This document shows positions 4,804 to 56,386 of a DNA stretch of 64,000 nt, piece by piece. Source of the stretch: Planctomycetota bacterium (GTDB taxonomy: Bacteria > Planctomycetota > Phycisphaerae > Phycisphaerales > UBA1924); NCBI GenBank assembly GCA_039186605.1, contig JBCCZZ010000001.1, positions 155,252 to 219,251 of the forward strand, written 5' to 3'. The translations under genes and the position numbers were made by a program. The stretch's first letter is position 1; every line of letters starts with the position of its first letter. The notes under the pieces are model-generated. The model worked only from the letters and a program-made list of their open reading frames with translations. It was not told the origin of the DNA and did no database searches.

Positions 4804-5540
4804 AGACCCCTCACCTGATCCGGATGGCATCCCCCGCGGTCGCCGCGGCGCTGCTGATTGCGTTGATCGCTTCAACCGGCGGAATCGCCGGTGCTAGGAC
4901 ACCTGGCAGCGCCGTGTACTTCGAGCGGGTCAAGGACGCGATCGAGGCGGTGCCCTACATCATCGATGGTCGCTGGGTGGGCCAAGACGAGGACCCGCAA
5001 GAGGCCGCGACGACGCTGCTCAAGCCCAACAAGCTGATGCAACGGCGGTACCGCGACCAAGAGACGGGACAGGTCGTCACCCTCCTGATCGTCCACTGCA
5101 AGGACGTCCGCGACATGGTGGGTCACTACCCGCTCAACTGTTACCCGAACGCGGGTTGGGAGCTGACGGGACAGGAGCGCGAATCGAACGCGGTCGGCGC
5201 GCTGAGCGTCTCTAGCACGGCCTATGGGTTCCGGCGCGAACACGAGGGCCTTCGCCACGAGATGCGTGTGCAGAACTTCTTTATTCTCCCGGCGGGGGAT
5301 GAGACCGCTGGACGCGTCGCGGCCGACTATGACGAGCTCGATCGTGCCGGGCGCAGCGCACGCTGGACTGAACTCGGGGCGGCGCAGGTGCAGATCCTGA
5401 CCGATCCGCTCATGGACGCAGAGTTCCGAGATGAAGCGACCCGAGCGTTCATGGCGGCGCTCGAGCCCGTGATCGATCAGATCGCGAGTGGCGTTCAGCC
5501 CGGTGACGCCGAGGCCGAGCGCGAAGGGGGAGGGGCATGA
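4800..5540 (+). CDS. EpsI-like exosortase-associated protein (N-terminal TM anchor, periplasmic domain)
   Basis: ATG at 4800 overlaps the exosortase TGA (ATGA). It has a single N-terminal hydrophobic segment, lies directly downstream of the exosortase as epsI does in XrtA loci, and is about 246 aa. Confidence 0.45.
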   Translation: MKTPHLIRMASPAVAAALLIALIASTGGIAGARTPGSAVYFERVKDAIEAVPYIIDGRWVGQDEDPQEAATTLLKPNKLMQRRYRDQETGQVVTLLIVHCKDVRDMVGHYPLNCYPNAGWELTGQERESNAVGALSVSSTAYGFRREHEGLRHEMRVQNFFILPAGDETAGRVAADYDELDRAGRSARWTELGAAQVQILTDPLMDAEFRDEATRAFMAALEPVIDQIASGVQPGDAEAEREGGGA

Positions 5541-7852: not shown

Positions 7853-9303
7853 TGACCCAGGGGCGTGCCATGTCCGAACTGGAGGGCGCCATCGCCCGAC
7901 CGGTATCGCCGACATTGCGCGGCGCACCGGGAACGGTCTGGGGGCTCGAGCCCGTCGAGCTGCACGACAGGTACTGGGCTTCGGCGCGTGTCCGCGTCGT
8001 ACGCCCTGGCGGCCCGGCCCCAGAGAAACGCGGGCCGAGCATGTACCTGCTTTGCGGGCCCGAGGACCTTGTGCTCTTCAAGCTCCACCCGATCGTCCGC
8101 CGGTTCGTGTGGGCCCAGGCGAAGATGGTCCGTCTGAGGATCAGCGATCCCGCCGGCGAGCGCTATTCCGAGCGCGTGGTCACAGACGCAGAGGGACGGA
8201 TCTCGGGCATCAAGCGGATCTACGGGGGCACGCTTCGGGGCTCTGTGCGGGTCGTGCTCACACCCAGCTACCGAGTTGCGGAAGCCTGGGCCCGGTCGGA
8301 GGAACCTGTCTCGGCGTTCCGCGCGGCGCGTGTCGAAGCTGGCCGAGACGCGATCCTCGCGCTGACCACGCGCGGCCGGACGCTCAACGCCGGCTCGACA
8401 CATGAGCAAGAGGCGTTCGTGCGCGAGCTCACCCAGGTGTGGCGTGAGGTGGGTGCTGCCCTCGATGGCGTTTATGAATTTGCCCCGCGCGTCTGGCTAC
8501 ACGAGACCGCGGAAATCGCGCAGTCCGCGAGACTGGTCGGTCCGCTTTGGATCGGTGGCGCCGCCTCGATCGGCGCCGATCAGATCCGTGTGGGCCCGGG
8601 CCTGATCCCCGACGCCGCGGGCTCGGAGGTCAAGCCGCCCCCCATCGATTGGCGTGAGCAGCACCCGCCGGGATGGCGGATCGTGCCGAGGCTCAGGCGC
8701 CGACGCGTCAGGCGGGTGAGCAAGCGGGCATTCGATGTCTTGTTCGCGTTGGCCGCTCTCCTGGGGACACTTCCCCTTTATCCCCTCGTGATGTTCCTGA
8801 TCTGGCGCGAAGATGGACGACCGTTCTTCTTCGCCCACACGCGGCAGACCGCCGGGGGGCGGGACTTCCCCTGCTACAAGTTCCGCACGATGCGGCGCGA
8901 CGCCGAGAAGATCAAAGCCGAACTCGCCAAGGCGAACCAGGCCGACGGCCCGCAGTTCTTCATGCGGGACGACCCTCGGCTGCTCCGCTGCGGGAAAGTC
9001 CTGAGGCGGCTCCAGATCGACGAGTTCCCCCAGTTCTTCAACGTGCTCTTGGGCCACATGAGCGTCGTCGGGCCCAGGCCCAGCCCCGACAAAGAAAATC
9101 AGTTCTGCCCAGCTTGGCGCGAGGCCCGCCTGAGCGTGCGGCCGGGGATCACGGGGCTTTGGCAGGTGCGGAGGACGAGAGAGCCGAAGACAGACTTCCA
9201 AGAATGGATCCGCTACGACCTCGAGTACGTCCAGCACGAGAGCTGGGCCCTCGACCTGTGGATCATCTACCAGACGGTGCGGCAGATCGTGCTGCGCGGC
9301 TGA
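7849..9303 (+). CDS. Polyprenyl-phosphate glycosyl-1-phosphate transferase (bacterial sugar transferase family, PglC/WbaP C-terminal-domain type) with ~290-aa non-membrane N-terminal domain
   Basis: The C-terminal 190 aa are KRAFDVLFALAALLGTLPLYPLVMFLIW (re-entrant helix) followed by FRTMRRDAE...IDEFPQFFNVLLGHMSVVGPRP, the Bac_transf signature. The N-terminus lacks TM helices and ends in a hexapeptide-like stretch. ATGA overlap with the Wzc-like stop. Confidence 0.8.
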   Translation: MMTQGRAMSELEGAIARPVSPTLRGAPGTVWGLEPVELHDRYWASARVRVVRPGGPAPEKRGPSMYLLCGPEDLVLFKLHPIVRRFVWAQAKMVRLRISDPAGERYSERVVTDAEGRISGIKRIYGGTLRGSVRVVLTPSYRVAEAWARSEEPVSAFRAARVEAGRDAILALTTRGRTLNAGSTHEQEAFVRELTQVWREVGAALDGVYEFAPRVWLHETAEIAQSARLVGPLWIGGAASIGADQIRVGPGLIPDAAGSEVKPPPIDWREQHPPGWRIVPRLRRRRVRRVSKRAFDVLFALAALLGTLPLYPLVMFLIWREDGRPFFFAHTRQTAGGRDFPCYKFRTMRRDAEKIKAELAKANQADGPQFFMRDDPRLLRCGKVLRRLQIDEFPQFFNVLLGHMSVVGPRPSPDKENQFCPAWREARLSVRPGITGLWQVRRTREPKTDFQEWIRYDLEYVQHESWALDLWIIYQTVRQIVLRG

Positions 9304-9371
9304 GGGAACAGCCGAAGTAGCACAGACCGACGGGGCCAACTGACCCGGCGAACGACTGACGGAGGCGTGGT

Positions 9372-12300
9372 ATGTCCAGCAGAGGCTTGCGGAGACTTGT
9401 GATCTTGCTCGTGGTCTTGGTGGTCACCGCCGGGGCCGGCTTCGCGCTGGTGCAGGTGAGAGACGCGGGACGCCGGGCCTCGGCCCTGGAGGCGAAGGAG
9501 GCGGGCGATGCCGCGTTCGAAGAGGAACGCTGGCGCGATGCCCTCTCGGGGATGGCGGCCTACCTGAGCTACGACGAGTTCAAAGGCGACGCCCAGGCGG
9601 TGTACAGGCTCGCAGAGGCGCGGAGCCGTGTGCCCGAGGATCGCACGAGCCGGCACAAGCTCGACGCATTGAGCCTGGCCAACCAAGCTGTACGTCTGGC
9701 GCCAGACTCGCTCGACGCGAGGCTTCTGCTGATGCGTTTGAACGTGGATCCCGCGATCCGTCGGCTACCCGAAGCGCTCGAGGCGAGTGCCGAGGTGCTC
9801 CGCATCGACCCGGACAACGAAGAGGCGGTGCTCACCCGTATCGCTTTGCTCGGCGCGTTCGATCGCCACGAGGAAGCCGTCGATCTCGCTGAGAGCTACG
9901 CCGAAGGCATGCCGGGTGATTTCCGCGCCGAGCTGATGAAGCTCCAGGCGATGCGCTCTGCAGGGGCGACGAACGAGGATGTCCTCGCGGAGGCAACGGG
10001 ACTCATCGACGCCTATCCCGATGAGCCCGGCTATCTCGTGCTGGCGACCGACCTGCTCTTGCGCACTGGCGATACCGCCGGTGCTCGGGCGATGGCGATC
10101 CGCGCGAACGACGCGGGCATCACGTCGCCCGCAACGCTGCGGGCACACACGGAGAACCTCGACGCATTGGGCTTGCGCGCGGAGGCCGACAGGCTGCTCG
10201 AGGACATGGTCGAGCAGGGCGGGTCAGACTGGGAGTTCGCGATCGCCTATGCCGACCGTGCGTGGCTCTCGGGCCGACCGCAGGAAGCTCTTGATCGTCT
10301 GCGGCCCCACACGAGTGCGCTGATCGAGGCAGACGACGGAGTGCTGGGCTTCGCGGCTTTCATCGAGCACGTCGCACTGGATGATGATGCGGACCGCCCG
10401 CTCCTCACGGCGCTGCGTGAGCGAGGGTCCTCCGCCGCTCAGTCCTGGGCGTCGCTCTGCGAAGCTGCGGACGCGCTTGAGGAAGACGACGCGGCACGCG
10501 CGCGTGATCTGCTTGAGGGCCTGCTGCTCACAATCCCCGGCGAGGCGTTGCCAGCCGCGATGCTCGCGAGGGCGTACGCGAAGCAGGGCGAGGCGCTCAA
10601 CGCGATCGATCTTTACGAGCAGGCTCTATCCCGGAGCCCCCGGTGGGTGGGGCCGAGGCTCGAGCTTGTGGAGGTGCTGATCAACCACGGCAGTCCGAGC
10701 CTGGCGCGCCAGAACGCGGCGATCGGGTACCGCTTCGCGCCGGAGTCGGTGGCGGCTCGTGAGGCGTTGCTCGAAGCGTCAACAGTCGCGTACGAAGCAG
10801 AGCCGGATCAGGGCGCGACCTGGCGCGCCGCGCTGATGGAAGATCTCGGTCGGCTGGCCGACGAGATCCCGGATTTCCGGGGCCGAGCGCTGGGCCGACT
10901 CGCCCGGATCGCGATCGCAGACGGAGACGCTGCGCAAGCCGAGGCACTGATTAGTGACCTGTTCGCATCAGAACCATCGATCCCGACGGGCGAGATGGCG
11001 AGGCTCGTCGCTGCAGCGGAGGGTGCGCAGCTCACCGCAGCGCGTCGGCTCCGCGGGCTCACGCCCATCGGCGAGTTGCAGGCGGCTCTAGCGGAGGCGG
11101 AGGCCGGGCGGGCGGACGCTGGCAAGGTCAGGCTCCGGGAGGCGATCAGCGGTGCCGAGGGCGTCGAAAGGCTCCGCGCCGAGCTCCGGCTCGCGGTGTA
11201 CCTCGACGAGATCGACGACCCGGAAGCCCGGGACGAGCTGCTCAAGCTCAGCCGTGCGTATCCAGACAACGCGGGGTTGCAAGCCGACATCCTCCGAACG
11301 AGGTCGATTTGGAATGATCAGGACACGTGCGGCGAGGTGATCAACCGCCTCCGCGAACTGACCGGCGACGGTGCCCTGAACTGGCGCACATTCGCGGCGC
11401 GCCGTGTGCTGGCTTTCGACAGGACCGAGCAGGCCGCGGCCGAGGCGCTGACGCTCCTCGACCCCGTACTCCGATCTGGGAACGACAACACCGATGCGCT
11501 CGTGCTCGCGGCCGACGCCTCTGGACTGTCAGGGCTTCGTGAGAAGAAGATCGAATATCTGGAAGCAGCATTGCGGACAGCGCCGGACCGCAGCGATCTG
11601 GCGCGGATTTTGGCTGATGCGCTCTCGGAGGCTGGGCAGTCCGAAGAGTCCACCGCGGTGCTCTTGCAGGGGCTCGGTGATCAGGACTTGGCGGCTCCTG
11701 ACCGCCGCAGGCTGATCGAGCGGCTCTTGGCGCGGGGTCTCGTCGCAGAGGCACGAGGTGAGCTCGAACTGCTCGCGGGCGATGACGCTCGGGACCGCGC
11801 GCTATCGGCGATGGTGGCCGCGATGTCGGGCGATGTACCCGGCGCGAGGGCGTCGTTCATCACCTTGTTGGATGCTCAGGATGCGCCCGCGACGGTGCTC
11901 ATGGATGCCGCCGAGTTCTTTGTTCAGATCGGCGAGCGGCAGCTCTTTACCCGTGCGATCGAGCGTGCGATGCCCGATGCGAGCGAAGCCGAGCGGCTCC
12001 GCGTCGGCACCGGGATCGCTGTTTCGGTCAACGCCTGGGCCTCTGCGGAGGCGTCGGCTCGCCGCCTGGTAGATATGGGTGAGACAGAGCCGACCGAGCT
12101 GGGTGTTCTGATCGCCGCGGCGCTCAGCCGGGGCGATCTCGAGGGCGCCGAGGCGAGCGCCTCGCTCGGAGCAGTAACAGACATTCATAGCCGAGCGGTG
12201 TCGCTCGCTCGCGAGGCCGCCGGCTCGGGCCGGCTTGATGCCATCCGATCGATCGGTCGGCTGTTGGCCGATCCGAGCGAGCGAGCGCAGGCTTTGTTCG

Positions 12301-13529
12301 GGGCGCTCGAGAGGCACCTGACCTCGCCTGATCGCACGAGCCTGGACGGGCTTCGTGGCTTCACCGAGGACCACCCAACCTGGTCGCTATCTTGGCTGAC
12401 ATTGGCGACGGAACTTGTTGCCGCGGGCGATGCAAACGAAGCAGTGCGCGTGCTCGTGAACGCCAGCGATCGTGTTCCGAACGAGGCGGTCATCCCGGCA
12501 ACCGGCTGGGAACTCGCCGCCGGGCTCGGTGAGTGGGGCCAGGCCGAACGATTCGCTCGGACATGGCGGACTCGATCGGCCCTGGATCCGCACGGCGCCA
12601 ACATGGCGCTTGCGACATCGCTCGCACGCCGTGGCGATCTCGCGGGAGCCGAGCAGATCCTGTCCGCGTCGCGCGATCGGATCATCGCAGAGGCCAACGC
12701 CAGACCGCGAGATCTGGTGACCTACGCGGAGGTGTTGGTCTCACTGGGCCGACTCGCGGAGGGTGAGGCCTTGCTCCGCCCAAGGCTTGACGAAGCGGAA
12801 GGCTGGGTGGCGTCCTACACGCAGCTCGGGCTGAGGCTTCCGGCCCTTGAAGAGCGGCGTGCTTTCCTTCGGCGGGCAATCGAGGTGGTCGCAGACAAGC
12901 CTGCGGGTATCGCGATCATTGGCCAGGCTTGGCTCGAAGACGCCGAAGCAACGGGAGAGGCCGCGAGCGCCGAAACCGCGCGGGACACGCTTCGGCTCGT
13001 CGCGAGAGAGCCAAGGTTCGCGGCCGCGGCCTGGGGCATGATCGCTCGCAGTGAGGAACTGCTCGACAACCAGGACGCGGCGATCGAGGCCTACCGGACC
13101 GCGGTCGAGCTGAGTCCTGACAACGTCCTGGCACTCAACAATCTGGCCTACATGATGCTGTCCGATGAGTCCAACGACGGTGTCGAAGCGGCTGGATATG
13201 CACGACGGGCGGTCGAGCTGCTCAGGCGAGGTGGGTCGTCGGGCGACGTTGTGGCTCAGGCCCTCGATACACTGGCGGACGCCGAACGACGACAGGGACG
13301 ATTCGAGGAGGCGGCGGCGGCCTCGGCCGAGGCGATCGAGCTCGGGCTGGGTCTTGCTATTGGAAGCCGAGCGGGCATTCTCCTTGACCTCGCTGAGGCT
13401 CAGGTCGAGCTGGGACAGCAGAGCCAAGCCGCCAGGACACTTGAACGGGCGGAAACTCTTGTGGGGGCTGAGCCAGATCCGGAGCGGGTGCGTCGGCTTA
13501 GCGAGTTGAAAGCTCGAAATTCAAGCTAA
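9372..13529 (+). CDS. Membrane-anchored TPR-repeat protein (1385 aa), PrsT-like candidate of the PEP-CTERM system
   Basis: N-terminal hydrophobic anchor LVILLVVLVVTAGAGFALV, then Ala/Leu/Arg-rich helical repeats with TPR-like periodicity throughout. It sits between the sugar transferase and the PEP-CTERM-like cargo gene. Confidence 0.65.
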   Translation: MSSRGLRRLVILLVVLVVTAGAGFALVQVRDAGRRASALEAKEAGDAAFEEERWRDALSGMAAYLSYDEFKGDAQAVYRLAEARSRVPEDRTSRHKLDALSLANQAVRLAPDSLDARLLLMRLNVDPAIRRLPEALEASAEVLRIDPDNEEAVLTRIALLGAFDRHEEAVDLAESYAEGMPGDFRAELMKLQAMRSAGATNEDVLAEATGLIDAYPDEPGYLVLATDLLLRTGDTAGARAMAIRANDAGITSPATLRAHTENLDALGLRAEADRLLEDMVEQGGSDWEFAIAYADRAWLSGRPQEALDRLRPHTSALIEADDGVLGFAAFIEHVALDDDADRPLLTALRERGSSAAQSWASLCEAADALEEDDAARARDLLEGLLLTIPGEALPAAMLARAYAKQGEALNAIDLYEQALSRSPRWVGPRLELVEVLINHGSPSLARQNAAIGYRFAPESVAAREALLEASTVAYEAEPDQGATWRAALMEDLGRLADEIPDFRGRALGRLARIAIADGDAAQAEALISDLFASEPSIPTGEMARLVAAAEGAQLTAARRLRGLTPIGELQAALAEAEAGRADAGKVRLREAISGAEGVERLRAELRLAVYLDEIDDPEARDELLKLSRAYPDNAGLQADILRTRSIWNDQDTCGEVINRLRELTGDGALNWRTFAARRVLAFDRTEQAAAEALTLLDPVLRSGNDNTDALVLAADASGLSGLREKKIEYLEAALRTAPDRSDLARILADALSEAGQSEESTAVLLQGLGDQDLAAPDRRRLIERLLARGLVAEARGELELLAGDDARDRALSAMVAAMSGDVPGARASFITLLDAQDAPATVLMDAAEFFVQIGERQLFTRAIERAMPDASEAERLRVGTGIAVSVNAWASAEASARRLVDMGETEPTELGVLIAAALSRGDLEGAEASASLGAVTDIHSRAVSLAREAAGSGRLDAIRSIGRLLADPSERAQALFGALERHLTSPDRTSLDGLRGFTEDHPTWSLSWLTLATELVAAGDANEAVRVLVNASDRVPNEAVIPATGWELAAGLGEWGQAERFARTWRTRSALDPHGANMALATSLARRGDLAGAEQILSASRDRIIAEANARPRDLVTYAEVLVSLGRLAEGEALLRPRLDEAEGWVASYTQLGLRLPALEERRAFLRRAIEVVADKPAGIAIIGQAWLEDAEATGEAASAETARDTLRLVAREPRFAAAAWGMIARSEELLDNQDAAIEAYRTAVELSPDNVLALNNLAYMMLSDESNDGVEAAGYARRAVELLRRGGSSGDVVAQALDTLADAERRQGRFEEAAAASAEAIELGLGLAIGSRAGILLDLAEAQVELGQQSQAARTLERAETLVGAEPDPERVRRLSELKARNSS

Positions 13530-13621
13530 TCCGTTGTTCAACAAGCCTTTGTGCCATTTCACATATCGGACCATTGGATCGTGACTAGCGCGCAAAGCTA
13601 GCGCGAAACTGGTACTTATCG

Positions 13622-20412: not shown

Positions 20413-23001
20413 TCATGCACCCGAATCGAGGCGGATCGAGGCATTGATCACGGCGAGGTGGCTGTAGGCCTGGGGGTGGTTCCCAAGGGCCACCGACTGG
20501 GCCGGGTCGTACTGCTCGGGGAGCAGCCCGGTGGGCCCGGCCAGAGCGCAGAGGTCGGTCAGCAGGGCTCTAGCTGCAGCAACCCGGCCGATCAGTACCA
20601 GCGACTCGATCAGCCAGCCCGTGCAGATCAGGAACCCGCCCTCGCGGCCGGCGAGCCCGTCGTCGTAGCGGTAGCGCCACACGGCGGGGCCCTCGCGGAG
20701 TTGCTCATCCACCAGTTCCACGGTCTTAACGAACCGCTCATCCATGGGATCGAGCATGCCGGTCAGCCCGACGAGCAGGGCCGAGGCATCGGGGTCGGGA
20801 TAGCCGTACGCGGTCGTGAACGCGCCGGTGTCGGGATCGACGCCGTTGCGGAGCAGATCGGACTTGATCTCCTCGGCGAGCGCGGCCCATTCGGGCTTGT
20901 CGCGGCCTGTGAAGCGTCGGGCGATCCGAGCACCGCGGTCTGCAGCGAGCCAGCACATGGCGCGGGAGTGGACGTGGTGGCGTCTCGCGAGGCGTATCTC
21001 CCAGATGCCGTGGTCCGGCTCATGCCAGCGTTTTTCGACGGCGGAGAGCAGAGACTCGGTCAGCCGCATGTGCTCGGCGCTGATGGGGGCGCCGCGTTCG
21101 CCGAGCTCGTCGATGAGCTCGATGATCGGGCCGATGACATCGAGTTGGATTTGTGCACTCGCGGCGTTGCCAACACGGACCGGACGGCTGCCCGCGTAGC
21201 CGGCCAGTTCGGTGATCTCTGCCTCGGGAGGTAGATCGCCGCCCGTGACGCTGTAAATCGGCCGGATGCGGTCTGGGCTCGGCAGTTCATCGACGATGTT
21301 GAGGCACCAATCGAGGAAACGCATCGCCTCCTGTGTTGAGCCGAGGCGCACGAGCGCCAGGGCACTCATCGATGCGTCGCGGGGCCAGCAGAAGCGGTAG
21401 TCCCAGTTTCGAACGCCCCCCAGGGTCTCGGGGAGGCTCGTCGTAGCGGCGGCGGAGAACGCGCCGGTCGGACCGTACGCGAGAGCGCGGAGGGTGAGGG
21501 CGCTACGCCGGACGAGGTCGGTGTGCAGGCCCGGCAACTCGAGCTTGTCAGCCCACTTCGTCCAGCCGTGGGCGGTCTCGCTCCGCCTTGCCGCCTCGTC
21601 ACGGGAATCGGGACGGAGGTTGCCGGTGCCGCACCGGAGTTCGAGCATGAGCGGCTCACCGGCCTTCAGGGTGATCTCGGCTGTGGCCGTCACGTGCTGG
21701 CCCTCGCGGTGGAGTTCCCAGTTGACACCAGGCGCACGGAGGACGATGGGGTCCACGGTGTCAGAGACGCTGAGCCCCTCATCGGTTACATCGAATGCGG
21801 TCGCGGTTCGGCCGAAGTCCAGACGCGGAGCAAACTCGATCCGGACGGGGCCCTTGCCTTCAAGCACACGGATCAGGTCGGTGCGGCCGGCACGCTGTGT
21901 GGCTCGCCCGCCCGAGGTGTCGAGATAGTCGGTCACCGAGAGATCAGGCCAGGACGTTCGCAGGACCAGCGAGTTGCTGTCGTAGGCCTGTTTGGGTTCC
22001 CCGCCCGAGAGGGGATGGACTGTGAAGTGCCCGGCGGCGTCGCCGCCCAGCAGGTCGGCGAAGAGGGCGGGCGAGTCGATCCGGGGTGCGCACATCCACG
22101 TCACCCGAGCCTTAGGCGTCACAAGCGCAACGGTCCGACCATCGCTCAGGAGTGCGTGTTCCTCGATGGGAACTGCACCCTCGCCTCGGAGCCAGGCCGC
22201 GCGGTGGTCACTGAGCTTGGCCAGGATGCGGCTGACGTCCTGGGTGTCATCCACACGGAATGTCGCGAGGGTCTCGCCAACGCCGACTTTGACCGAGACG
22301 TCTGGCCCACTCATCGCGGCAAACGCGTCCTCGTCGGTGCGGTCGTCACCGAGGAAGACCGCGGCGCTCGCGCCGAAGCGCTGACGGAGTGTCGCGAGGG
22401 CCCGGCCCTTGTCGGTGGGCACGACGGCAAGCTCGATGACCTTCTTCCCACGGCGGACGTGCACACCCGGGAGGCATGCGGGCCCCGCGTTGACACGGCT
22501 TACCGCGGCGTCGGCCTCGGCTTCGGCTGCGTTGCGGTAGTGGAACGCGGTGCTCGCGGGCTTGGTCTCGATCGCGAGGCCTTGGGCCGAGCTGGCGATA
22601 TCGCCCAGCTGCTCTGTCACCCGCTCGAGCAGCCGGCGCTGGGCAGGGGTGAGCGAGTCGGCGAAGCCCACGTCGAACTCGCTGCCGTGGCTGCCGACCA
22701 GATGGACACCTGCCGGGGAGCCGGTGAGGTCGGCGAGGTCGGCCAGCGAGCGGCCCGAGATGATTGCGGCCTCGGTCTTGTGGATCTCGGCGAGTGTGCG
22801 CACGGCGATGACTGCCTCGCGGTGGGGCCTGGCGTCCGCGGGGTTCTCGACGATGGGCGCGAGGGTTCCGTCGTAGTCGGTTGCGACAAGCAGTACTGGC
22901 GAACGAGCGACACGGGCGATGGCCTCGTCGAGGGTCTCGGCGGGGCGGTGCTCTGCGGGCCGTTGTTCTGAGGCGTTGTGTCGGTCGGTCATGGTTGGCA
23001 C
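20413..23001 (-). CDS. otsB: Bifunctional trehalose-6-phosphate phosphatase (HAD) / glycoside hydrolase family 15
   Basis: N-terminus has ATDYDGTLAP and FLGDDRTDEDAF HAD motifs. The C-terminal ~600 aa form a GH15 (glucoamylase/trehalase-like) alpha-alpha toroid region. Confidence 0.8.
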   Translation of the reverse strand: MPTMTDRHNASEQRPAEHRPAETLDEAIARVARSPVLLVATDYDGTLAPIVENPADARPHREAVIAVRTLAEIHKTEAAIISGRSLADLADLTGSPAGVHLVGSHGSEFDVGFADSLTPAQRRLLERVTEQLGDIASSAQGLAIETKPASTAFHYRNAAEAEADAAVSRVNAGPACLPGVHVRRGKKVIELAVVPTDKGRALATLRQRFGASAAVFLGDDRTDEDAFAAMSGPDVSVKVGVGETLATFRVDDTQDVSRILAKLSDHRAAWLRGEGAVPIEEHALLSDGRTVALVTPKARVTWMCAPRIDSPALFADLLGGDAAGHFTVHPLSGGEPKQAYDSNSLVLRTSWPDLSVTDYLDTSGGRATQRAGRTDLIRVLEGKGPVRIEFAPRLDFGRTATAFDVTDEGLSVSDTVDPIVLRAPGVNWELHREGQHVTATAEITLKAGEPLMLELRCGTGNLRPDSRDEAARRSETAHGWTKWADKLELPGLHTDLVRRSALTLRALAYGPTGAFSAAATTSLPETLGGVRNWDYRFCWPRDASMSALALVRLGSTQEAMRFLDWCLNIVDELPSPDRIRPIYSVTGGDLPPEAEITELAGYAGSRPVRVGNAASAQIQLDVIGPIIELIDELGERGAPISAEHMRLTESLLSAVEKRWHEPDHGIWEIRLARRHHVHSRAMCWLAADRGARIARRFTGRDKPEWAALAEEIKSDLLRNGVDPDTGAFTTAYGYPDPDASALLVGLTGMLDPMDERFVKTVELVDEQLREGPAVWRYRYDDGLAGREGGFLICTGWLIESLVLIGRVAAARALLTDLCALAGPTGLLPEQYDPAQSVALGNHPQAYSHLAVINASIRLDSGA

Positions 23002-23006: not shown

Positions 23007-24413
23007 TCAGGCGAGCATCGGCTGGCCGGCGAGGTCACTCAAGAAGGCATCAGCCCAGCGGAACACGTCGTGCCGGGTCACGATCTTGCGGAGCGTAGCC
23101 ATGCGTTTTCGGGCCTCGTTGCTGGTCATGTCGAGAGCCTCGGTCAGGGCGCCCGCCATGCCGTCAACGTCATGAGGATTGACCAGGATTGCGCCGCGGA
23201 GCTCGGCGGCGGCACCGGCGAACTCGCTGAGCACGAGTACGCCGTCGGATTCGAGCCTGCACGCGCAGTACTCCTTGCACACCAGGTTCATGCCGTCGCG
23301 GAGAGGCGTGACCATCAGAATGTCAGCGGCGAGGTAGAAGCTGATCAGTTCTCGGATGGGCAGGCCCCTGTACAGGTAGTGGACCGCGACCCAGCCGGGG
23401 CTGGCGTGCTGGCCGTTGATGCGACCAACGATCTGCTCGATGTTGGCCCGCTCGGTGGCGTACTCCTCGACGCCGGCGCGGCTGGGAACGGCGACCTGAA
23501 CAAAGACCACGTCGTCGGATGTCGCCTTGCCCGAGGAGAGGATCTCCTCGAAGGCCCTCAGGCGGATGTCGATGCCCTTGGTGTAGTCGAGGCGATCGAC
23601 ACCAAGGATGATCTTTCGATCACCAAGAACTGTTCGGAGTTCGTCGGCCTTTGCGATGACCTCCGGTTCCCGAGCCATCTTGTCGAAAAATGGCGTGTCC
23701 ACGCTTATCGGGAAGCATCGTGCGCGGCAGACGTGCTCATCGACCTGGAGGTCGCGATCGCGGCCCTTGGCGTCGGCGAGCATGCGCGCAGCGCGTGCGA
23801 AGTTCTGGGCACCGGAAGCTGTTTGGAACCCGACCAGGTCGGCGCCGAGCAGTCCGCGGAGGATCTCGCGACGCCATGGCATCTGTGCGAAGAGCTCTTC
23901 GGGCGGGAAGGGGATGTGCAGGAAGAACCCGATGCGGCAATCGGGGCGGAGTTTCCGGATCATCTCGGGCACCAGTTGGAGCTGGTAGTCGTGGACCCAG
24001 ATGGTGTCGCCCGGCTTGGCCTGGCTGGCCGCGGCCTTCGCGAAGCGCTTATTGATCTCGACATATGGGCGCCACCAGTGACGGTGGAACTCGGGCGGCC
24101 TGACGCAGTCGTGGTAGAGGGGCCAGAGGGTCCGATTACTGAAGCCCTCGTAGAAGGCCTCGAACTCAACCTCATCGAGGGGTACCGGGCGGTTGCGGAT
24201 GCCGTCGAGCTTAAAGGGGCGCGGGGCGGGCCCGGTCTCGCCCGCCCAGCCGACCCAGGTGCCCTCGCGTTCCTGGAGGATGGGTTTAAGGGCGCTCACG
24301 AGGCCCCCGGGACTGACCTTCCAGCCTTGGCCGTCTTTGCCACCCGTGTCCACCCGTCGAACGGGCAGGCGGTTGGCGACAACGATCAGTCTTCCTGCGG
24401 GATCCGCTGGCAT
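23007..24413 (-). CDS. otsA: Alpha,alpha-trehalose-phosphate synthase (UDP-forming)
   Basis: [10 protein letters not shown]...[11 protein letters not shown]...[10 protein letters not shown]20 family. Start taken at the internal ATG (MPADPAG); the long ORF extension upstream is not conserved. Confidence 0.9.
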
Positions 24414-24703
24414 GAACTGAACGTACCAGAAACCACGACCCGCTCGTGGCACCTGTGCTTCGGGACAGCGGGCGGTGGCCTGCGTATCCTCCTGACCCGG
24501 GGGGAAAGAGCCCTTCCGGCACCCCATGGAGGGGACGGCGGGGCTAGAGCCGTGAGCAGCGGCGCATGCCCGGCAGACACCAGTCAGGACCCATGCCTGT
24601 TTCGGGCACCCGTGGACGATCCTCGGGCCCCGTGAAGCCGGCCCTCGGGGCGGGCGGCTGGGACGACGTACACCGAGCACCGCACGCGAAAGGCGAGCAA
24701 CCC

Positions 24704-25015
24704 ATGAGCGACAACCCCGAGCAGCGTCAGGTCCAGCTCCGCATCGACGAGAGCAAGATGCAGACGACCTATGCCAACACGATCCGAACCTCGACAACTC
24801 AGGACGAGGTCATCATGGACTACGGCGTGAACATCCCGGTGCAGGGCCAGGACGGGCAGCCGGCGATGAACTTCGGGATCACCAGCCGCGTGATCATGAA
24901 CTGGTCGGGCGCGAAGCGTCTGGCGATTAATCTGGGTCAAGTCATCCGCGCCTATGAGGAGCGGAACGGCGAGATCGAACTCCAGCGTCCGCAGCAGCCA
25001 GGGGCCGAGGGCTGA
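24704..25015 (+). CDS. DUF3467-like small protein (103 aa)
   Basis: MSDNPEQRQVQLRIDESKMQTTYANTIR...FGITSRVIMNWSGAKRLAINLGQVIRAYEE matches the conserved pattern of the ~100-aa DUF3467 family. It is the first gene of the operon described in findings. Confidence 0.55.
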   Translation: MSDNPEQRQVQLRIDESKMQTTYANTIRTSTTQDEVIMDYGVNIPVQGQDGQPAMNFGITSRVIMNWSGAKRLAINLGQVIRAYEERNGEIELQRPQQPGAEG

Positions 25016-26953: not shown

Positions 26954-29185
26954 GTGCGGCTTTTCGAGGTAGACACCGGCGGGACCTATTCCGACGAGTG
27001 GTACAGGGTCAGCCAGCTCCAGCCCAGGCTGAACCCGATCGCACACGTCGTGCGTCAGAGCAGCGGGGACACGGTGTGGTACATCATCGAGGACCCGGCA
27101 GGGAGCCGCTACTTCCGGGCGGGTGAGGGGGCGTACTTCTTCGCCGCGCTCCTCGATGGCAGGCGGACGGTGGATGACGCGTGGGAGGCGTGCTGCGCGC
27201 AACTTGGGGACGCGGCGCCGACACAGCGTTCGTGCCTCGACATCCTGATGAAGCTCCAGTCTTTCGGGCTGCTGCTTGGCGATGATGTAGCAGCGGCGGA
27301 TCTCGTGGGCGAGCGGATCAGGCGGGGGCGGAAGAGCCGCCGCGAGAAGCGAACAGGGCGCTGGTTTTTCCTCAGCGTGCCGCTGGTCAACCCGGAACGG
27401 CCGCTGGCAGCGACGAACTGGCTCTGGAAAGCGGCATGGGGACCCCTCGGGCTGATCCTCTTTCTCGCGTCCGTTGTGGCGGGCGGGTACAGCGTTTGGA
27501 CCAACGCCGATCAGCTCGCGGATCCGATCAATGAGTTGATGACACCCACGCGGCTCATGCTGGTGGGGCTGATCTTCATTGTTCTTCGTGCGGTTCATGA
27601 GCTCGGGCATGCGACGGCTTGTAAGGCGTACGGCGGCCGTTGCACAGAGATTGGGCTTTTCCTGGTGGCGCTCATTCTCCCGCTTCCCTACTGCGATGCA
27701 TCGAGTTCGTGGCGCTTCCCGGAGCGTTGGAAGCGGATCATGGTCGCGTTGGGCGGCGTGATGGTTGAGCTGTTCATTGCCGGGATTGCGGCGGTGATTT
27801 GGGCGAACACATCCGCAACGGATGCGCCCGCTCTAAAGAACGTGTGCTACCACGTGATGCTGGTGTCGGGTGTCGCGACGTTCCTGTTCAACCTCAATCC
27901 GCTGCTTCGATACGACGGGTACTACATCCTGAGCGATCTCATCGCTGCGCCAAATCTGGCGCAGCGCAGCAAGGAGATCTGGCGCTACCTGACGGAGCGG
28001 ATCGCGTTCGGGGTCAAGAGGAGCAGGCCTCCGACACTGCGATCCAGGAGCGAGGCAATCTGGCTTTTCTTCTACGCACTCGCATCCACGCCCTACCGAT
28101 TGTTCATCGCGGTGTCGATCATCCTTCTGGTCTCGTCGAAGTACCTGACAGTTGGTGTTGTGATCGCGGTCGCGACCGCGACGATCATGTTGATCTGGCC
28201 ATCACTCAAGGGCGCGTGGTACCTGCTGAGTTCGCCCACACTTATCGGGCGGCGTGTTCGAGCGTTCGCTGTGGTTGCGGTCGTGCTCGGTGCGTTGATC
28301 GGTGGGCTCGGGTTCGTCCCCGCACCGGCGGCGGAGATCTCGCCGGCAACGATCGAGGCCCGGTGGACCGATCCCATCCGGGCACCGCTCGACGGGTTCG
28401 TTGAGAGCTTCCTTGTTTCTCCCGGAGACGAGGTCGAGGCGGGCCAGCCGCTGATTCTGCTGCGCAACGATCCGCTTGATATCCAGATCACCGAGCTCGA
28501 GTCGATCAGAAGGCTGACTGAGGCGCAGCTCGCGCAGGCCGAGACGGAATCTCCGGCGCTCGCGGTGCTCGCGAGGCAGAAACTCGATCTGATCAACGAG
28601 CGCCTGGCGGACGCGGTCGGGAGACGGGACTCGCTGACCGTTCGTGCGACACGTGCCGGACGGTACGTCGCGCCCGGCGCGATCGCGGGTGGGCTCGACC
28701 GGCTGACGGGTGTGTTTGTGTCGCGCGGGGAACCTCTGGGCAGTGTGGCGAGCCGAGACTCGTTGGTCGTGCGGGCGTATGTCTCTGATCGAGAGCACGC
28801 GTACGTATTCAGGAATGACGACCTGGGTGCGGTACCCGCGTCGGTTCGGCTGTGGGGCCGGGCGGGGCTGGAACTGCCCGCGGTGGTGACCGCGACTGAG
28901 CCTGTTGCGTCGCGCGGCGCAGACTTGGCGGTGACCACGCTCGCTGGAGGAGAGGTAGAGATCACCCAGGACGCCGAGGGGAACCAGATCGCCATGGTGC
29001 CCCAGTTCCGTGTGGATCTCCAGCCATCTGATGACGGGCGGTGGGCCGAAGCGGGCGAGATCCGCGCTGGTTTGCGTGCCCGCGTGCGTTTCGCGGCTCC
29101 TGATGAACCGCTCGGCGCGCAGTGGTTCAGGCGTGCGAGCCGCTATTTCGAGGAGCGGTTCGCGGGCGGCGGGGGTGCCCTGTGA
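26954..29185 (+). CDS. Site-2 protease (peptidase M50) fused to N-terminal PqqD/RRE-like domain and C-terminal HlyD-like periplasmic domain
   Basis: N-terminal ~110 aa (P..P....R..G..W...DP...RYFR..EGAYFFAALLDGRRTVDDAWE...DILMKLQSFGLLL) is PqqD-like. HELGH lies in a TM helix, and FNLNPLLRYDGYYILSD is the second S2P motif. The C-terminus has VESFLVSPGDEVEAGQPLILL plus coiled coil, i.e. HlyD-like. Confidence 0.75.
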   Translation: MRLFEVDTGGTYSDEWYRVSQLQPRLNPIAHVVRQSSGDTVWYIIEDPAGSRYFRAGEGAYFFAALLDGRRTVDDAWEACCAQLGDAAPTQRSCLDILMKLQSFGLLLGDDVAAADLVGERIRRGRKSRREKRTGRWFFLSVPLVNPERPLAATNWLWKAAWGPLGLILFLASVVAGGYSVWTNADQLADPINELMTPTRLMLVGLIFIVLRAVHELGHATACKAYGGRCTEIGLFLVALILPLPYCDASSSWRFPERWKRIMVALGGVMVELFIAGIAAVIWANTSATDAPALKNVCYHVMLVSGVATFLFNLNPLLRYDGYYILSDLIAAPNLAQRSKEIWRYLTERIAFGVKRSRPPTLRSRSEAIWLFFYALASTPYRLFIAVSIILLVSSKYLTVGVVIAVATATIMLIWPSLKGAWYLLSSPTLIGRRVRAFAVVAVVLGALIGGLGFVPAPAAEISPATIEARWTDPIRAPLDGFVESFLVSPGDEVEAGQPLILLRNDPLDIQITELESIRRLTEAQLAQAETESPALAVLARQKLDLINERLADAVGRRDSLTVRATRAGRYVAPGAIAGGLDRLTGVFVSRGEPLGSVASRDSLVVRAYVSDREHAYVFRNDDLGAVPASVRLWGRAGLELPAVVTATEPVASRGADLAVTTLAGGEVEITQDAEGNQIAMVPQFRVDLQPSDDGRWAEAGEIRAGLRARVRFAAPDEPLGAQWFRRASRYFEERFAGGGGAL

Positions 29186-31221
29186 GCGGTGTGGTCGGCG
29201 GGGGCACGATCGGCCGGTCGGGGCGGCTCTGGGCAGACCTCGCGAAGCCACAGGAACGAACGCTCGCGCTTCGAGGCGCGGACGTGTTTGGCTCGACAGT
29301 CGTTGGAATCGGTGCCCGGTTCAGGCGTGCAAGAACCGAGCGAGGTCGGGCAAAGTCCATACTCACCGAGGCCCGAACGCTCAGCGATCACTCGTCCGCG
29401 GCGTTCGCTGAACGGGTGAGTGAGGCGCAGTCGTTGGTGCTCTTGGATCGCTCGAGCAGAGCCGCGGTTGACGCTGCGTACGCCTGTGCGGTCGAGGCGG
29501 TGCGCCGCACGCTCGGGTTCGAACTGCACACGGTGCAGGTGATGGCCGCGCTCGCGATGGCGAAAGGCTGCTGCTGCGAGCTGGCGACCGGCGAGGGAAA
29601 GACGGCGGCCGCGATCTTGCCTGCGGCGCTAGACGGCATGGTCGGTCGCGGCGTTCACGTGATCACGGTGAATGACTACCTCGCGGGGCGCGATGCGGAA
29701 ATCACTGGTCCTGCGTATCGGTTGCTGGGCTTGCGTGTCGGCTTCGTGACGGAGACTTCGTCGACGGAGGCGCGTCGAGAGGCGTATTCGGCAGATATCA
29801 CCTACGCGGCGGAGAAGCAGCTGATCTTCGACTACCTGAGGGATCGCCTCCTGACCCCCGTGAACCCCCGGATGGCCTCGGCGTTGCTTGACGAGGTGGC
29901 GGGATACGACCGACGTGTACGCGGCGCGGAGACCGAGCGGGGCGACGCCAAATGGGCACAAACGGTAACCCAGCGCGGGCTGCACGCGGCGGTGATCGAC
30001 GAGGCGGACAGCGTGCTGATCGACCAGGCCGGGACGCCGGCGATCATCGGGCGTGACGCGCCGGAGGAACTCGGTGAGGCGGCAGCCGAGCGGTACCGGA
30101 CGTCCGACGCCATCGCGGCCTCGTTGACCCGGGGGGTTCATTACAAGCTGGATGAAGGGCAACGCTTTGTTGCGCTCACCGACGCGGGACGACACGTGCT
30201 TGACGAGCGTTCTGTGGAACTCCCCCCGTTCTGGTCGGGACCGAGGCGTCGAGAAGAACTTGTGAAGCTCTCACTCATGGCTCGGGAGACGTTCGAGCGG
30301 GACGACGACTATGTCGTCCGCGACGGTGCGGTCGAGCTTGTTGACCGACAGACGGGGCGGGTGCTGACGGGTCGGCAGTGGCAGCAGGGGTTGCACCAGG
30401 CGGTCGAGGCGAAAGAGGGCGTCACGATCACCGCGGGTCGGCAGACCATGAGCCGGATCGGTTATGCCGCGTTCTTTGCTCGCTACCGGCGGCTATGCGG
30501 CATGAGCGGTACTTGCTGGGAAACACGGCACGAGCTGTGGCGCATGTATCGGTTGCCGGTTGCGCGTGTGCCAACCCATAAACGCGTGCGGCGGAGGCAC
30601 GCGGGTGATCGCGTGTTCACGAGCGAGACTCAGAAGTTCGAGGCGGTCGCGAACCGAACTGCGAAGCTCAGCGGTGTGGGACGGCCCGTGCTCATTGGGA
30701 CGCGGAGTGTTGCAGCAAGCGAGCGGCTTGGCAAGCTGCTTGACGAACGAGGCGTCGGATGCAAGATCCTGAACGCCTACCGCGAGGCTGAAGAAGCGGA
30801 GATCATCGCTGCCGCCGGCGAAGAACACGCGGTCACGGTCGCGACGAACATGGCTGGCCGCGGCACGGATATCAAACTGACGAAGAAAGCCAAGAAGCTG
30901 GGCGGACTGGTGGTTGTTGCCACAGAGCGGCACAACGAGCGACGCGTTGATCGCCAGCTCTTCGGCCGTGCGGGACGGCAGGGCGATCCTGGGCGTGCAG
31001 AGATGTTCGTCTCGCTCGACGATGAACTGGTGCGCGGCGCGATGCCCACGACCGGCCGTCTGGCGCTCAGGCTAACGCCTCCGCCTTTCCGCTCGCTGCT
31101 CGGGCGCCTGCTGTTGCCGGTGAGCCAGCGGATCGCGAGCGGCCGCGCAGCGGTGCATCGGCTCGAAAGCTGGAAGCATGACTCGTCGAAGGATCTTGCG
31201 CTGCGAGGTCACACGCGTTAG
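29182..31221 (+). CDS. SecA-like motor ATPase (NBD1 + PPXD-like + NBD2 only; no helical scaffold/wing/C-tail)
   Basis: GEGKTAAAILPA (Walker A), VHVITVNDYLAGRDAE, VIDEADSVLIDQAGTPAIIG, ATNMAGRGTDIKL and ERHNERRVDRQLFGRAGRQGDPG all match SecA DEAD-motor signatures. The protein ends ~70 aa after NBD2. GTG start overlaps the upstream stop (GTGA). Confidence 0.75.
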   Translation: MSGVVGGGTIGRSGRLWADLAKPQERTLALRGADVFGSTVVGIGARFRRARTERGRAKSILTEARTLSDHSSAAFAERVSEAQSLVLLDRSSRAAVDAAYACAVEAVRRTLGFELHTVQVMAALAMAKGCCCELATGEGKTAAAILPAALDGMVGRGVHVITVNDYLAGRDAEITGPAYRLLGLRVGFVTETSSTEARREAYSADITYAAEKQLIFDYLRDRLLTPVNPRMASALLDEVAGYDRRVRGAETERGDAKWAQTVTQRGLHAAVIDEADSVLIDQAGTPAIIGRDAPEELGEAAAERYRTSDAIAASLTRGVHYKLDEGQRFVALTDAGRHVLDERSVELPPFWSGPRRREELVKLSLMARETFERDDDYVVRDGAVELVDRQTGRVLTGRQWQQGLHQAVEAKEGVTITAGRQTMSRIGYAAFFARYRRLCGMSGTCWETRHELWRMYRLPVARVPTHKRVRRRHAGDRVFTSETQKFEAVANRTAKLSGVGRPVLIGTRSVAASERLGKLLDERGVGCKILNAYREAEEAEIIAAAGEEHAVTVATNMAGRGTDIKLTKKAKKLGGLVVVATERHNERRVDRQLFGRAGRQGDPGRAEMFVSLDDELVRGAMPTTGRLALRLTPPPFRSLLGRLLLPVSQRIASGRAAVHRLESWKHDSSKDLALRGHTR

Positions 31222-32783
31222 GGCGTTCGTTGGCTCGGCTGTGGATCGCGGTCGATCATTGAGTCGAGCATGGTGCCGATGAGGGCGGTCGTGGCGCTAT
31301 CGCTCTCATCCGCACCACCACCGTTGACCATTACACGCGGTGCGATGTTGATCCCGCGTTCGCCGATCACCTGCAGCACTTCGATGAGCGCGGCGTTTCC
31401 GGGGCCGATCTCGCGGGCGATGGCCTGGAATGCCGCAGCCTGGGCCTCGGCGCGGACGCGGATCGCCTCGGCTTCGGCCTCTGCGGCGATGATGCGCTTG
31501 CGCTTGTCTTCCTCAGCGATCTGCACCTCGTAGCGCGCTGTGGCGAGGCGCCGCTCTTCCTCGGCCTCCTGCTCGGTTCTGGTCAGCTGCTTGCGTTGTT
31601 CTGCGGCTCGTTGCTGCTCCTGGAACGTGATCTGCTCCTGGAGCGCGATCTCCCGATCGGTCTGGGTCTGCAGCAGCTCTCCCAGCGTTTCGCGATCTCC
31701 GACATCACCGATCGCGACGCCGGTGACGGTCACACCAAGCGGCGCAAGCCTCATCTGGAGCATGCTCAGCGATTGGGCTTCCTGGCTTGAACGCTGCTGC
31801 ACATAGTCAAGAGCCTTGACACCCTCGGCGTTGTTCCGAAAGACGGAGCGGACTGCGGAGATCAGGCGGTCTTGGAGCAGTTCTCCATCATCGCGGAAGG
31901 TCGCGACGACCAAGGGGGCATCGATCGGTTTGATCTCGTACTCGACACGCACATCAACGGGGAATGTGAACCCATCGCTTGAGCGGACTGTGATCTCGCT
32001 CTCGGCTTCCGTACGTTGCGCCTTGGTGAACTCGAGTACGCGTTTGGCGGTGCTGATCACGGTGACCTCGAGCGCTTTGCTGTTCAGGTAGTACTCCTTA
32101 GGCTCGAGTGGTTGGCGACGGATGCCGCGCTCGTCGGGGCCGACAAGCCCGTCGTCCGAGATGGCTGGAGGCGTGGCGCCAACGTTGGACTTCACGACAC
32201 CAACGGTGGCCCGCTCGATGTTGGTCAGACGGACGAGTTCGACATCGAAGAGCTTGGGGTTGATCCTGTAGGACCCGGGCCTGAGCACGCTGGTCTGTGG
32301 GCCCTTGTACCCCCCGCCATCACCCAAGAAGTAACCGGCATCCTGCGCCATGCGCTTCGTGTCACTCTCGGCCCACTCCGGCGCGTAGATTGAATCGGCG
32401 GGGAGTGGAAGCCCGTCACGTGCGGTTACGAGCCCGACCGAGCCCGTCTCAACGCGAACGATTGGGTGGAACTCGACATCGAAGATGAAGGGCCACAGGA
32501 ACGGGTGCCAGCCGGGTGGGAGGATGTCCGCCTGCGGTCCTTTCTCGCCTTCTGTCGCGATGATCTTCCCGGGTGGGAGCCCCTTGCCGCCGACGTTCTT
32601 GATCACAACGCCGATGCGGTCCTCGGGAACGAAGCGGAAGCTCCCGAGCACGAAGAACACGCCGAGCACGATGATCGCAGCCGTGGCGATCGATGCCCTC
32701 AGCGCTGAGGACTTCACCTTTGGGATGAGTGCGAGGATGCCGCCAGCAATGACGAGCCCGAACACGAGCAGGATCGCGGTCAT
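31218..32783 (-). CDS. SPFH/Band 7 (flotillin-like) membrane protein
   Basis: N-terminal TM hairpin, SPFH core, and a long Ala/Glu-rich coiled-coil C-terminus (EAEAEAIRVRAEAQAAAFQAIA). Confidence 0.8.
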   Translation of the reverse strand: MTAILLVFGLVIAGGILALIPKVKSSALRASIATAAIIVLGVFFVLGSFRFVPEDRIGVVIKNVGGKGLPPGKIIATEGEKGPQADILPPGWHPFLWPFIFDVEFHPIVRVETGSVGLVTARDGLPLPADSIYAPEWAESDTKRMAQDAGYFLGDGGGYKGPQTSVLRPGSYRINPKLFDVELVRLTNIERATVGVVKSNVGATPPAISDDGLVGPDERGIRRQPLEPKEYYLNSKALEVTVISTAKRVLEFTKAQRTEAESEITVRSSDGFTFPVDVRVEYEIKPIDAPLVVATFRDDGELLQDRLISAVRSVFRNNAEGVKALDYVQQRSSQEAQSLSMLQMRLAPLGVTVTGVAIGDVGDRETLGELLQTQTDREIALQEQITFQEQQRAAEQRKQLTRTEQEAEEERRLATARYEVQIAEEDKRKRIIAAEAEAEAIRVRAEAQAAAFQAIAREIGPGNAALIEVLQVIGERGINIAPRVMVNGGGADESDSATTALIGTMLDSMIDRDPQPSQRTP

Positions 32784-56159: not shown

Positions 56160-56386
56160 GCGCCACCTCGCTGTCCCCACTCAGCGCGGATGAACGTGTC
56201 GATTGTGGACTTGCGCCAGCGACGAATTCGCTTCGTCGCAACATCTGGAGGAGGAAACTGTCCTTGGGACCTACGCGACTGCAGAGTTCGCTTGCCAATC
56301 TTGAGGTACCGGGCGATCTCGTGGAGTGTGAGAAAACAGTCTTCAACCCCGTCGTGGGCTTCGTAGCCCAAAATCTGACTTGTCAT
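56156..56386 (-). CDS. AlpA/MerR-like phage-type HTH regulator (excisionase-like)
   Basis: FLTLHEIARYLKIGKRTLQSRRSQGQFPPP is an AlpA-family HTH_17 signature. About 76 aa. Confidence 0.6.
   Translation of the reverse strand: MTSQILGYEAHDGVEDCFLTLHEIARYLKIGKRTLQSRRSQGQFPPPDVATKRIRRWRKSTIDTFIRAEWGQRGGA

Follow-up and report, generated by a model that had tools for sequence, protein, structure and literature searches.

What would an intramembrane protease do with a peptide-recognition domain at its N terminus and a periplasmic adaptor domain at its C terminus? The question is raised by a gene at positions 26954 to 29185 of a 64,000-nucleotide stretch of DNA from a Planctomycetota bacterium (assembly GCA_039186605.1, contig JBCCZZ010000001.1, positions 155,252 to 219,251), to which we refer as the window and whose G+C content is 63.7%. 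The open reading frame (ORF) is present exactly as an initial annotation, made from the DNA letters, had given it, running from a GTG start to a TGA stop, and its 743-aa product matches the NCBI entry 'hypothetical protein AAGB51_00800' from a Planctomycetota metagenome-assembled genome with 100% identity from end to end. We find that this product is a three-part membrane protein, composed of a cytoplasmic recognition element (RRE) for peptides that are ribosomally synthesized and then modified post-translationally (RiPPs), an intramembrane M50/site-2 protease (S2P) core and a periplasmic membrane-fusion protein (MFP) domain, and that its gene is translationally coupled to a gene for a GAF-MFP protein upstream and to a gene for a SecA-like ATPase downstream. 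On balance, we put even confidence in the view that a conserved cassette for protein export and processing spans the envelope, with this protein as its inner-membrane core, and that the protein is neither a stand-alone signalling S2P nor a RiPP enzyme. More tentatively, the cassette could be a previously unrecognised multi-phylum secretion system for proteins that begin with the LEPR-XLL motif, including giants of 9,000-10,000 aa, with the RRE reading this motif as a leader, the intramembrane protease clipping it and a SecA-type motor driving translocation without SecYEG; we consider this more specific proposal possible, though on the doubtful side.

Domain architecture of the 743-aa protein

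All of the motifs cited in the initial annotation were found in the 743-aa translation, and the make-up that it had claimed, an RRE followed by an M50/S2P core and a HlyD-type MFP domain, proved real when examined with Pfam, AlphaFold2 (AF2) and Foldseek. The AF2 model was computed with 55 homologs in the alignment and has a mean predicted local distance difference test (pLDDT) score of 85.4 and a predicted template modeling (pTM) score of 0.70. At the N terminus, the Pfam PqqD model (PF05402) scored 20.2 bits on the whole protein, under its gathering cut-off of 23.4, and 24.1 bits, over the cut-off, on residues 1-119 alone; it was matched in 54 of the 55 aligned family members, with a best E value of 3.6e-8. 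The PqqD/RRE match anticipated for the N-terminal ~110 aa was thus obtained. In the AF2 model, this segment is a winged helix with three strands (residues 31-37, 40-47 and 52-57) followed by three helices (residues 58-66, 73-87 and 91-103), which resembles solved RREs and gave a fold match to lasso-peptide RREs. The third strand and third helix of RREs form the usual leader groove, and the residues that are invariant in the family (R55, F63, Q91, G105 and others) include positions on both of these elements.

The membrane core matched Pfam PF02163 with 31.6 bits against a gathering cut-off of 27.2, as did 53 of the 55 homologs. According to both the AF2 model and hydropathy, the HELGH motif (residues 215-219) lies within a helix spanning residues 198-225, and the NLNPLLRYDG motif (residues 313-322) lies at the end of a helix spanning residues 292-313. 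Both motifs are invariant in the 55 aligned homologs and present in the full-length homologs of other loci (77/77). Hydropathy, the AF2 model and a positive-inside count, with 31 lysine and arginine residues in the proposed cytoplasmic loops versus two in the periplasmic loops, agree on a topology of seven transmembrane (TM) helices, N-in/C-out, plus a re-entrant hairpin. This topology places the RRE in the cytoplasm, HELGH and NLNPLLRYDG at cytoplasmic TM ends and the C-terminal domain in the periplasm, and it upholds the earlier assertion that the HExxH and NxxPxxxxDG motifs sit within TM helices. Judged by these motifs and by the model, the M50 protease is catalytically intact, and its active site is predicted to face the cytoplasmic leaflet. 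No S2P relative was found in the PDB by sequence, and none was among the listed fold matches (best 50-60) of the full-length model.

The C-terminal domain combines a lipoyl/barrel-sandwich, an alpha-hairpin and a beta-barrel in the periplasm behind a TM anchor, as is the case for an MFP. Foldseek matched the AF2 model to MacA, MexA, AcrA and TMexC at E values of ~1e-11, and a profile search of the MFP region returned MacA, TriAB, HlyD and EmrA. As a possible partner for this domain, no inner-membrane transporter of the ATP-binding cassette (ABC), resistance-nodulation-division (RND) or major facilitator superfamily (MFS) type was found in the window's cassette or in any related cassette.

Among curated families, the 743-aa protein is best matched (E 2.7e-46) by the daptide biosynthesis intramembrane metalloprotease, NF041824, with residues 26-413 aligned to positions 3-365 of the 379-position model, which spans the RRE and the protease. 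The score of 158.4 bits is below the family cut-off of 300, and a Tepidisphaerales-type relative scored 151.6 bits; the YydH/LiaK epipeptide protease model NF058609 gave 34.4 bits against a cut-off of 225 (E 1.7e-8). We conclude that the 743-aa protein is homologous to the daptide protease MpaP and lies outside the MpaP family. MpaP is an RRE-dependent intramembrane peptidase in which an RRE is fused to an S2P (Ren et al. 2023, PMC10028931/PMC10036551). Daptide precursors carry the leader motif ELExMEAP, and an alanine scan read out via MpaB/MpaC processing identified Leu(-7) and Met(-4) as essential (PMC10028931). With the publication of MpaP in 2023, the principle of fusing an RRE to an S2P had already been described; of the initial annotation's statement that an RRE implies leader-based substrate selection, unusual for S2P enzymes, the first part remains reasonable given that MpaP is the closest curated relative, and what the second part calls unusual was already in print.

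The two proteins share an N-terminal RRE and an M50/S2P core, and the presumed task of MpaP is leader removal guided by ELExMEAP, which is similar to the LE-x-LE-P core of the LEPR-XLL motif that we describe below. In contrast to MpaP, the 743-aa protein has three more TM helices and a ~280-aa periplasmic MFP domain. Daptide genes, namely those for short Thr-ending precursors, MpaB, MpaC, MpaD, MpaM and the ABC transporter, were present neither in the window nor in related loci; the partners here are the GAF-MFP protein and the SecA-like ATPase. Where daptide peptides measure ~25 aa, the substrates here are likely to be large proteins. Many homologs have been automatically named 'PqqD family peptide modification chaperone' or 'putative peptide zinc metalloprotease'.

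A conserved cassette with a truncated SecA-like ATPase

The 743-aa gene is the third of four tightly packed genes on the same strand. Only 10 nt separate the stop codon of the GAF-MFP gene from its start, and its own stop codon is overlapped by the start of the SecA-like gene. The GAF-MFP protein has Pfam GAF/GAF_3 matches at residues 193-333 and HlyD_D23/HlyD_3 matches at residues 401-596, a TIGR01730 match (E 2.2e-21) and a single strong hydrophobic segment at residues 368-386. The first gene encodes a small DUF3467 protein, the NCBI version of which is 127 aa long, from a start further upstream.

The SecA-like ATPase matched the Pfam models SecA_DEAD (5e-77), SecA_PP_bind and P-loop_SecA. 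Its alignment is restricted to residues ~51-587 of Bacillus subtilis SecA, so that it lacks the helical scaffold, wing, two-helix finger and C-terminal tail, and the protein remains under every SecA/SecA2 NCBIfam cut-off, with 520-526 bits versus 800-862. Its orthologs are uniformly short (median 662 aa), and GEGKT, DE[AV]D and GRGTDI are retained in 60-61 of 61 of them. Like canonical SecA and SecA2, it has nucleotide-binding domain (NBD) 1, the preprotein cross-linking domain and NBD2, along with the Walker A, DEAD and arginine-finger motifs; unlike canonical SecA, it stops just past NBD2, before the elements that include the finger that enters SecY. Its sequence describes a protein that retains the motor and the preprotein clamp without any SecYEG-binding or membrane-binding part. 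A similar scaffold-less SecA module has been described inside giant proteins of Omnitrophota and Actinobacteria, for which a role in their own export was suggested (bioRxiv 10.1101/2023.11.21.568195), and we regard that as a related but different observation.

To describe how the cassette is conserved, we used 90 related loci obtained from a metagenome scan and context look-ups, and neighbour counts are limited to loci with long enough flanks. The common order is (DUF3467), GAF-MFP, RRE-M50-MFP and the SecA-like ATPase without scaffold and wing. In 64 of 65 loci, the gene immediately upstream of the M50 gene is that for the GAF-MFP protein, and in 58 of 58 the gene immediately downstream is the SecA-like one, an arrangement that is maintained down to 30-35% protease identity. 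DUF3467 immediately precedes the cassette in ~45% of loci (tblastn, 25 of 56; profile search, 24-27 of 57). A short third MFP of ~280-320 aa was found beside the cassette, either upstream or downstream, in 49 of 89 sequences (88 loci plus the window). We also noted apparent M50-SecA fusions, with ORFs of more than 1,400 aa, and rejected them as frame artefacts of stop-to-stop ORFs in GC-rich DNA.

A profile search against 1.84 billion cluster representatives returned 5,538 clusters (50% identity) at E<=1e-30, the best 150 of which were nearly all full-length matches with E<=1e-160. We saw the cassette in Planctomycetota, Nitrospira, Alphaproteobacteria and Gammaproteobacteria, and the fusion protein also in Verrucomicrobiota; named carriers of homologs are Phycisphaerae (including the cultured Humisphaera borealis), Nitrospira, Xanthobacteraceae, Chthoniobacteraceae and Gammaproteobacteria (including Marinobacterium arenosum). 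The order in Xanthobacteraceae is DUF3467, GAF-MFP, RRE-M50-MFP, SecA-like ATPase and short MFP. In Nitrospira, it is GAF-MFP, RRE-M50-MFP, SecA-like ATPase, short MFP and an OEP/TolC-like gene, with two Cadherin/CARDB/Big_9 proteins encoded upstream; this is the one relative in which a TolC-like gene is linked to the cassette.

For the DUF3467 protein, the AF2 model is poor (pLDDT 58.8), with three strands and a long helix. It has no significant PDB match, and its Foldseek matches are insignificant (PC4/SSB-like, E ~0.1). We also considered it as a SecB-like chaperone; hhalign of the DUF3467 alignment against Escherichia coli SecB gave no match, and a profile search of PDB sequences likewise gave none.

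Candidate cargo and competing explanations

The genes that adjoin the cassette in a subset of the loci suggest a candidate class of substrate. At the N termini of large ORFs beside the cassette, we found the LEPR-XLL motif, which has the consensus FEALEPRLLLSAD and follows basic residues; one example of such a leader is RFRLEALEPRILLSADG. Repeat proteins of large or giant size that begin with LEPR-XLL are encoded next to the cassette in 16 of the 90 loci, and a scan of 88 loci placed the motif at the start of long ORFs in 15, in addition to the 9,025-aa protein of locus L089, the gene for which is faced by a gammaproteobacterial cassette. Another cassette comes after a gene for a 10,534-aa protein. 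Among the 59 loci with enough downstream sequence, 11 have LEPR-XLL on the cassette's own strand and downstream of its last gene, within 1 kb in 10 of these, and a control with the reversed motif gave two matches versus 17 for the forward motif in 2.04 million six-frame positions. Three of the cassette-neighbour proteins were over the cut-off of NF012209 ('LEPR-XLL domain'). The large neighbouring ORFs contain domains of extracellular types, namely CARDB, Big_9/Cadherin, Cohesin, RTX and Laminin_G. We suggest that LEPR-XLL, an orphan N-terminal signal, may be the cargo tag of the cassette.

The fixed position of the gene between those for the GAF-MFP protein and the truncated SecA-like ATPase argues for protein export rather than small-peptide maturation, and a gene set that in related bacteria adjoins huge surface proteins with one N-terminal motif is probably an undescribed machine for export and processing. 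In the mechanism that we propose, the RRE would capture the N-terminal leader (basic residues followed by FEALEPRLLLSAD) of unfolded cargo in the cytoplasm, and the SecA-like ATPase, docked on the membrane complex in place of SecYEG, would feed in the unfolded chain. The S2P site would remove the leader, and two or three MFPs would build a periplasmic duct to an outer-membrane channel, allowing the cargo to exit in one step. The GAF domain would probably gate the machine via a small ligand, and the DUF3467 protein may serve as a cytoplasmic chaperone or adaptor. As the window holds no more of the cassette than its four core genes, the genes for the cargo and for the outer-membrane partner must lie elsewhere.

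Several observations weigh against this proposal. A LEPR-XLL ORF and a TolC-like gene are both missing from the 64-kb window and from the surroundings of its closest relatives (loci L002-L004, L009 and L010), and the link to this cargo is therefore carried over from more distant relatives at 30-35% identity. Even among the related loci, an adjacent LEPR-XLL gene occurs in just ~18%. The short third MFP is absent from the window and its closest relatives as well, and with cargo, TolC-like gene and third MFP all missing from the window, the function of its cassette is one that we infer. A Marinobacterium cassette (L086:6184-10925) has no SecA-like gene, keeping the short MFP and a LEPR-XLL protein, and a Phycisphaerales homolog (L090:8184-10436) stands alone, with neither a GAF-MFP nor a SecA-like neighbour. 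The cassette includes no channel of a known transporter type (ABC, RND or MFS), and a conduit formed by the TM helices of the M50 and MFP proteins would be hypothetical. LEPR-XLL (L-E-A-L-E-P) does have the spacing of the daptide leader, hydrophobic-Glu-x-hydrophobic-Glu; this is a resemblance between short motifs only, which would fit homologous RREs reading related leaders. Leader binding by the RRE, proteolysis and secretion by the cassette are predicted roles.

Could the protein instead be a RiPP-type maturation enzyme, which would cut the leader from a small peptide, such as the DUF3467 product, that the MFP parts then export? The closest curated families, MpaP and YydH/LiaK, are indeed RiPP leader peptidases, the RRE has a fold like that of lasso-peptide RREs and a small gene lies directly upstream, which the initial annotation had put forward as the source of the substrate. 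That protein turned out to be a poor candidate. Its sequence belongs to a widespread domain family and is 65-80% identical across Phycisphaerae relatives whose protease is 42-48% identical, and it is missing from more than half of the loci; because it is both better conserved than the enzyme and optional, its reading as a precursor is unlikely. Upstream of the M50 gene in loci without DUF3467, we found no conserved small precursor ORF in its place, just antisense or chance clusters, and no RiPP-modifying enzyme or precursor family is conserved near the cassette across the related loci. Together with a SecA-like polypeptide motor and giant neighbour proteins, which would not be expected for a small peptide, these results leave RiPP maturation with a small probability. 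We accord slightly more to ATP-dependent membrane proteolysis or quality control of the FtsH kind, still an unlikely role, in which the SecA-like ATPase would unfold or extract substrates for the M50 site and the MFPs would act as scaffolds, with no export. The coupling of ATPase and zinc protease in all 58 loci, with overlapping genes and conserved catalytic motifs in both proteins, would suit such a role, as would the lack of a linked outer-membrane factor in the window's own clade; two or three MFP paralogs and the Nitrospira OEP/TolC-like gene are hallmarks of a trans-envelope conduit, however, and the neighbouring genes encode extracellular-type adhesin-like proteins with a common N-terminal signal.

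Regulated intramembrane proteolysis, in which the S2P would cleave an anti-sigma factor or membrane regulator bound by the RRE and the GAF domain would act as the sensor, appears quite improbable to us. It draws on membership in the M50 family, on the GAF sensory domain of the partner protein and on an extracytoplasmic function sigma factor a few kb away in one relative, but no sigma/anti-sigma pair is conserved beside the cassette in the related loci, there is neither a PDZ domain nor a site-1 protease, and a SecA-like ATPase and MFP domains have no part in the known pathways of this kind. We give very little credence to an ordinary efflux-pump adaptor for which the M50 part would be a mere membrane anchor. 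The NCBI annotation pipeline (PGAP) does name homologs 'HlyD family efflux transporter periplasmic adaptor subunit', in keeping with the MFP fold, yet no ABC, RND or MFS pump gene is found in the cassette, HExxH and NxxPxxxxDG are invariant, which is unexpected for an anchor, and the RRE is conserved too.

Features of the 743-aa gene, its cassette and related loci (window positions unless a locus is named)
Feature	Position	Strand	Remarks
DUF3467 small protein, 103 aa	24704..25015	+	First operon gene; Pfam PF11950, E 3.8e-16
GAF-MFP protein, 628 aa	25057..26943	+	GAF region in the cytoplasm, single TM helix ~366-388, HlyD-type adaptor in the periplasm
RRE - M50/S2P - MFP fusion protein, 743 aa	26954..29185	+	GTG start 26954, TGA stop 29185
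PqqD-like RRE, residues ~26-110	27029..27283	+	Cytoplasmic
M50/S2P membrane core, residues ~160-457	27431..28324	+	7 TM helices and re-entrant beta-hairpin 232-248; PF02163; NF041824 aligned to residues 26-413
HELGH zinc-binding/catalytic motif, residues 215-219	27596..27610	+	Cytoplasmic end of TM2; 77/77 homologs
NLNPLLRYDG motif, residues 313-322	27890..27919	+	Third zinc ligand Asp321; cytoplasmic end of TM4; 77/77 homologs
Periplasmic HlyD-type membrane-fusion domain, residues ~458-737	28325..29164	+	Lipoyl/barrel-sandwich, short alpha-hairpin (helices 506-532 and 534-559), beta-barrel
SecA-like ATPase, 679 aa	29182..31221	+	GTG start overlaps M50-gene stop (GTGA); NBD1, preprotein cross-linking domain and NBD2 only
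LEPR-XLL proteins beside the cassette	L051:6430-11301; L059:11190-16166; L033:12-2927; L085:1134-3917; L086 ~11213-13555; L089:1-6705(-); others
Nitrospira short third MFP and OEP (TolC-like) gene	L085:12053-14390

The genes that flank the operon in the window, which code for enzymes of trehalose synthesis, for an SPFH protein and for a phosphatase-like protein, are not kept beside it in relatives. The SPFH/Band 7 gene (31218-32783, minus strand) is convergent with the SecA-like gene, with a 4-nt overlap, and is probably unrelated to the cassette since relatives lack it at this position. On the other side, an 862-aa protein (20413-23001, minus strand), in which trehalose-6-phosphate phosphatase is fused to a TREH_N/GH15 trehalase-like part, directly adjoins OtsA (23007-24797, minus strand), so that synthesis and hydrolysis domains occur within one locus. 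Elsewhere in the window, a polysaccharide-export-type pair, in which an AAA_31 tyrosine-kinase-like protein is combined with a Bac_transf sugar transferase, precedes a tetratricopeptide repeat protein of 1,385 aa (5537-13529, plus strand), and a D5_N / DUF5906 / Pox_D5 primase-helicase-like protein (53970-56180, minus strand) suggests an integrated mobile element or prophage remnant nearby.

Relation to known export systems and significance

If the cassette does export and process proteins, the closest analogy would be a peptidase-containing ABC exporter with HlyD and TolC in which an S2P and a SecA-like ATPase replace the ABC transporter. Type I secretion systems and peptidase-containing ABC exporters (HlyB/HlyD/TolC; C39 exporters such as CvaAB-TolC) likewise comprise a cytoplasmic ATPase, a leader-removing protease and HlyD-type adaptors. 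The cassette's MFP region aligns to HlyD, including the TM-proximal part, a TolC-like gene is linked in Nitrospira, and giant repeat or RTX-type adhesin-like cargo candidates lie nearby. In contrast to these exporters, the cassette has a SecA-like ATPase and no ABC transporter, its protease is an M50 metalloprotease and not a cysteine peptidase of the C39 type, and it includes two or three different MFPs. Its candidate signal is LEPR-XLL at the N terminus, in place of an RTX signal at the C terminus or a leader of the double-glycine type. With MFPs present, the ABC transporter absent and an outer-membrane factor linked in a single relative, the cassette may be called type I-like by analogy at most.

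The use of more than one MFP paralog per system is shared with TriABC-OpmH, and the profile search matched the TriA-TriB fusion 6vej; TriABC contains an RND small-molecule pump, whereas the cassette contains no pump. From classical S2Ps (RseP, SpoIVFB and MjS2P), which also have HExxH and NxxPxxxxDG near the cytoplasmic face and a re-entrant beta-hairpin after the HExxH helix, the 743-aa protein differs in having an N-terminal RRE and a C-terminal MFP domain instead of a PDZ domain, a CBS domain or a site-1 protease context. In the literature searched, we found no paper on an S2P-HlyD fusion, on this cassette or on LEPR-XLL tied to secretion machinery, and DUF3467 and LEPR-XLL were mentioned in passing only. 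The RRE-Finder papers are silent on fusions with M50, HlyD or SecA, and the NHLP paper deals with ABC/HlyD cassettes only.

This work extends an RRE-intramembrane protease module, so far known from one RiPP class, to a form that carries a periplasmic adaptor and is the hub of a large family found in at least four phyla. If the proposed function is correct, the orphan LEPR-XLL signal of some of the largest bacterial proteins would gain both a function and a sorting machinery, there would be a second, SecY-independent use of the SecA motor, and tripartite envelope conduits would have a new solution for energising and processing. Cultured carriers of the cassette exist in Humisphaera borealis, Marinobacterium arenosum and Nitrospira.

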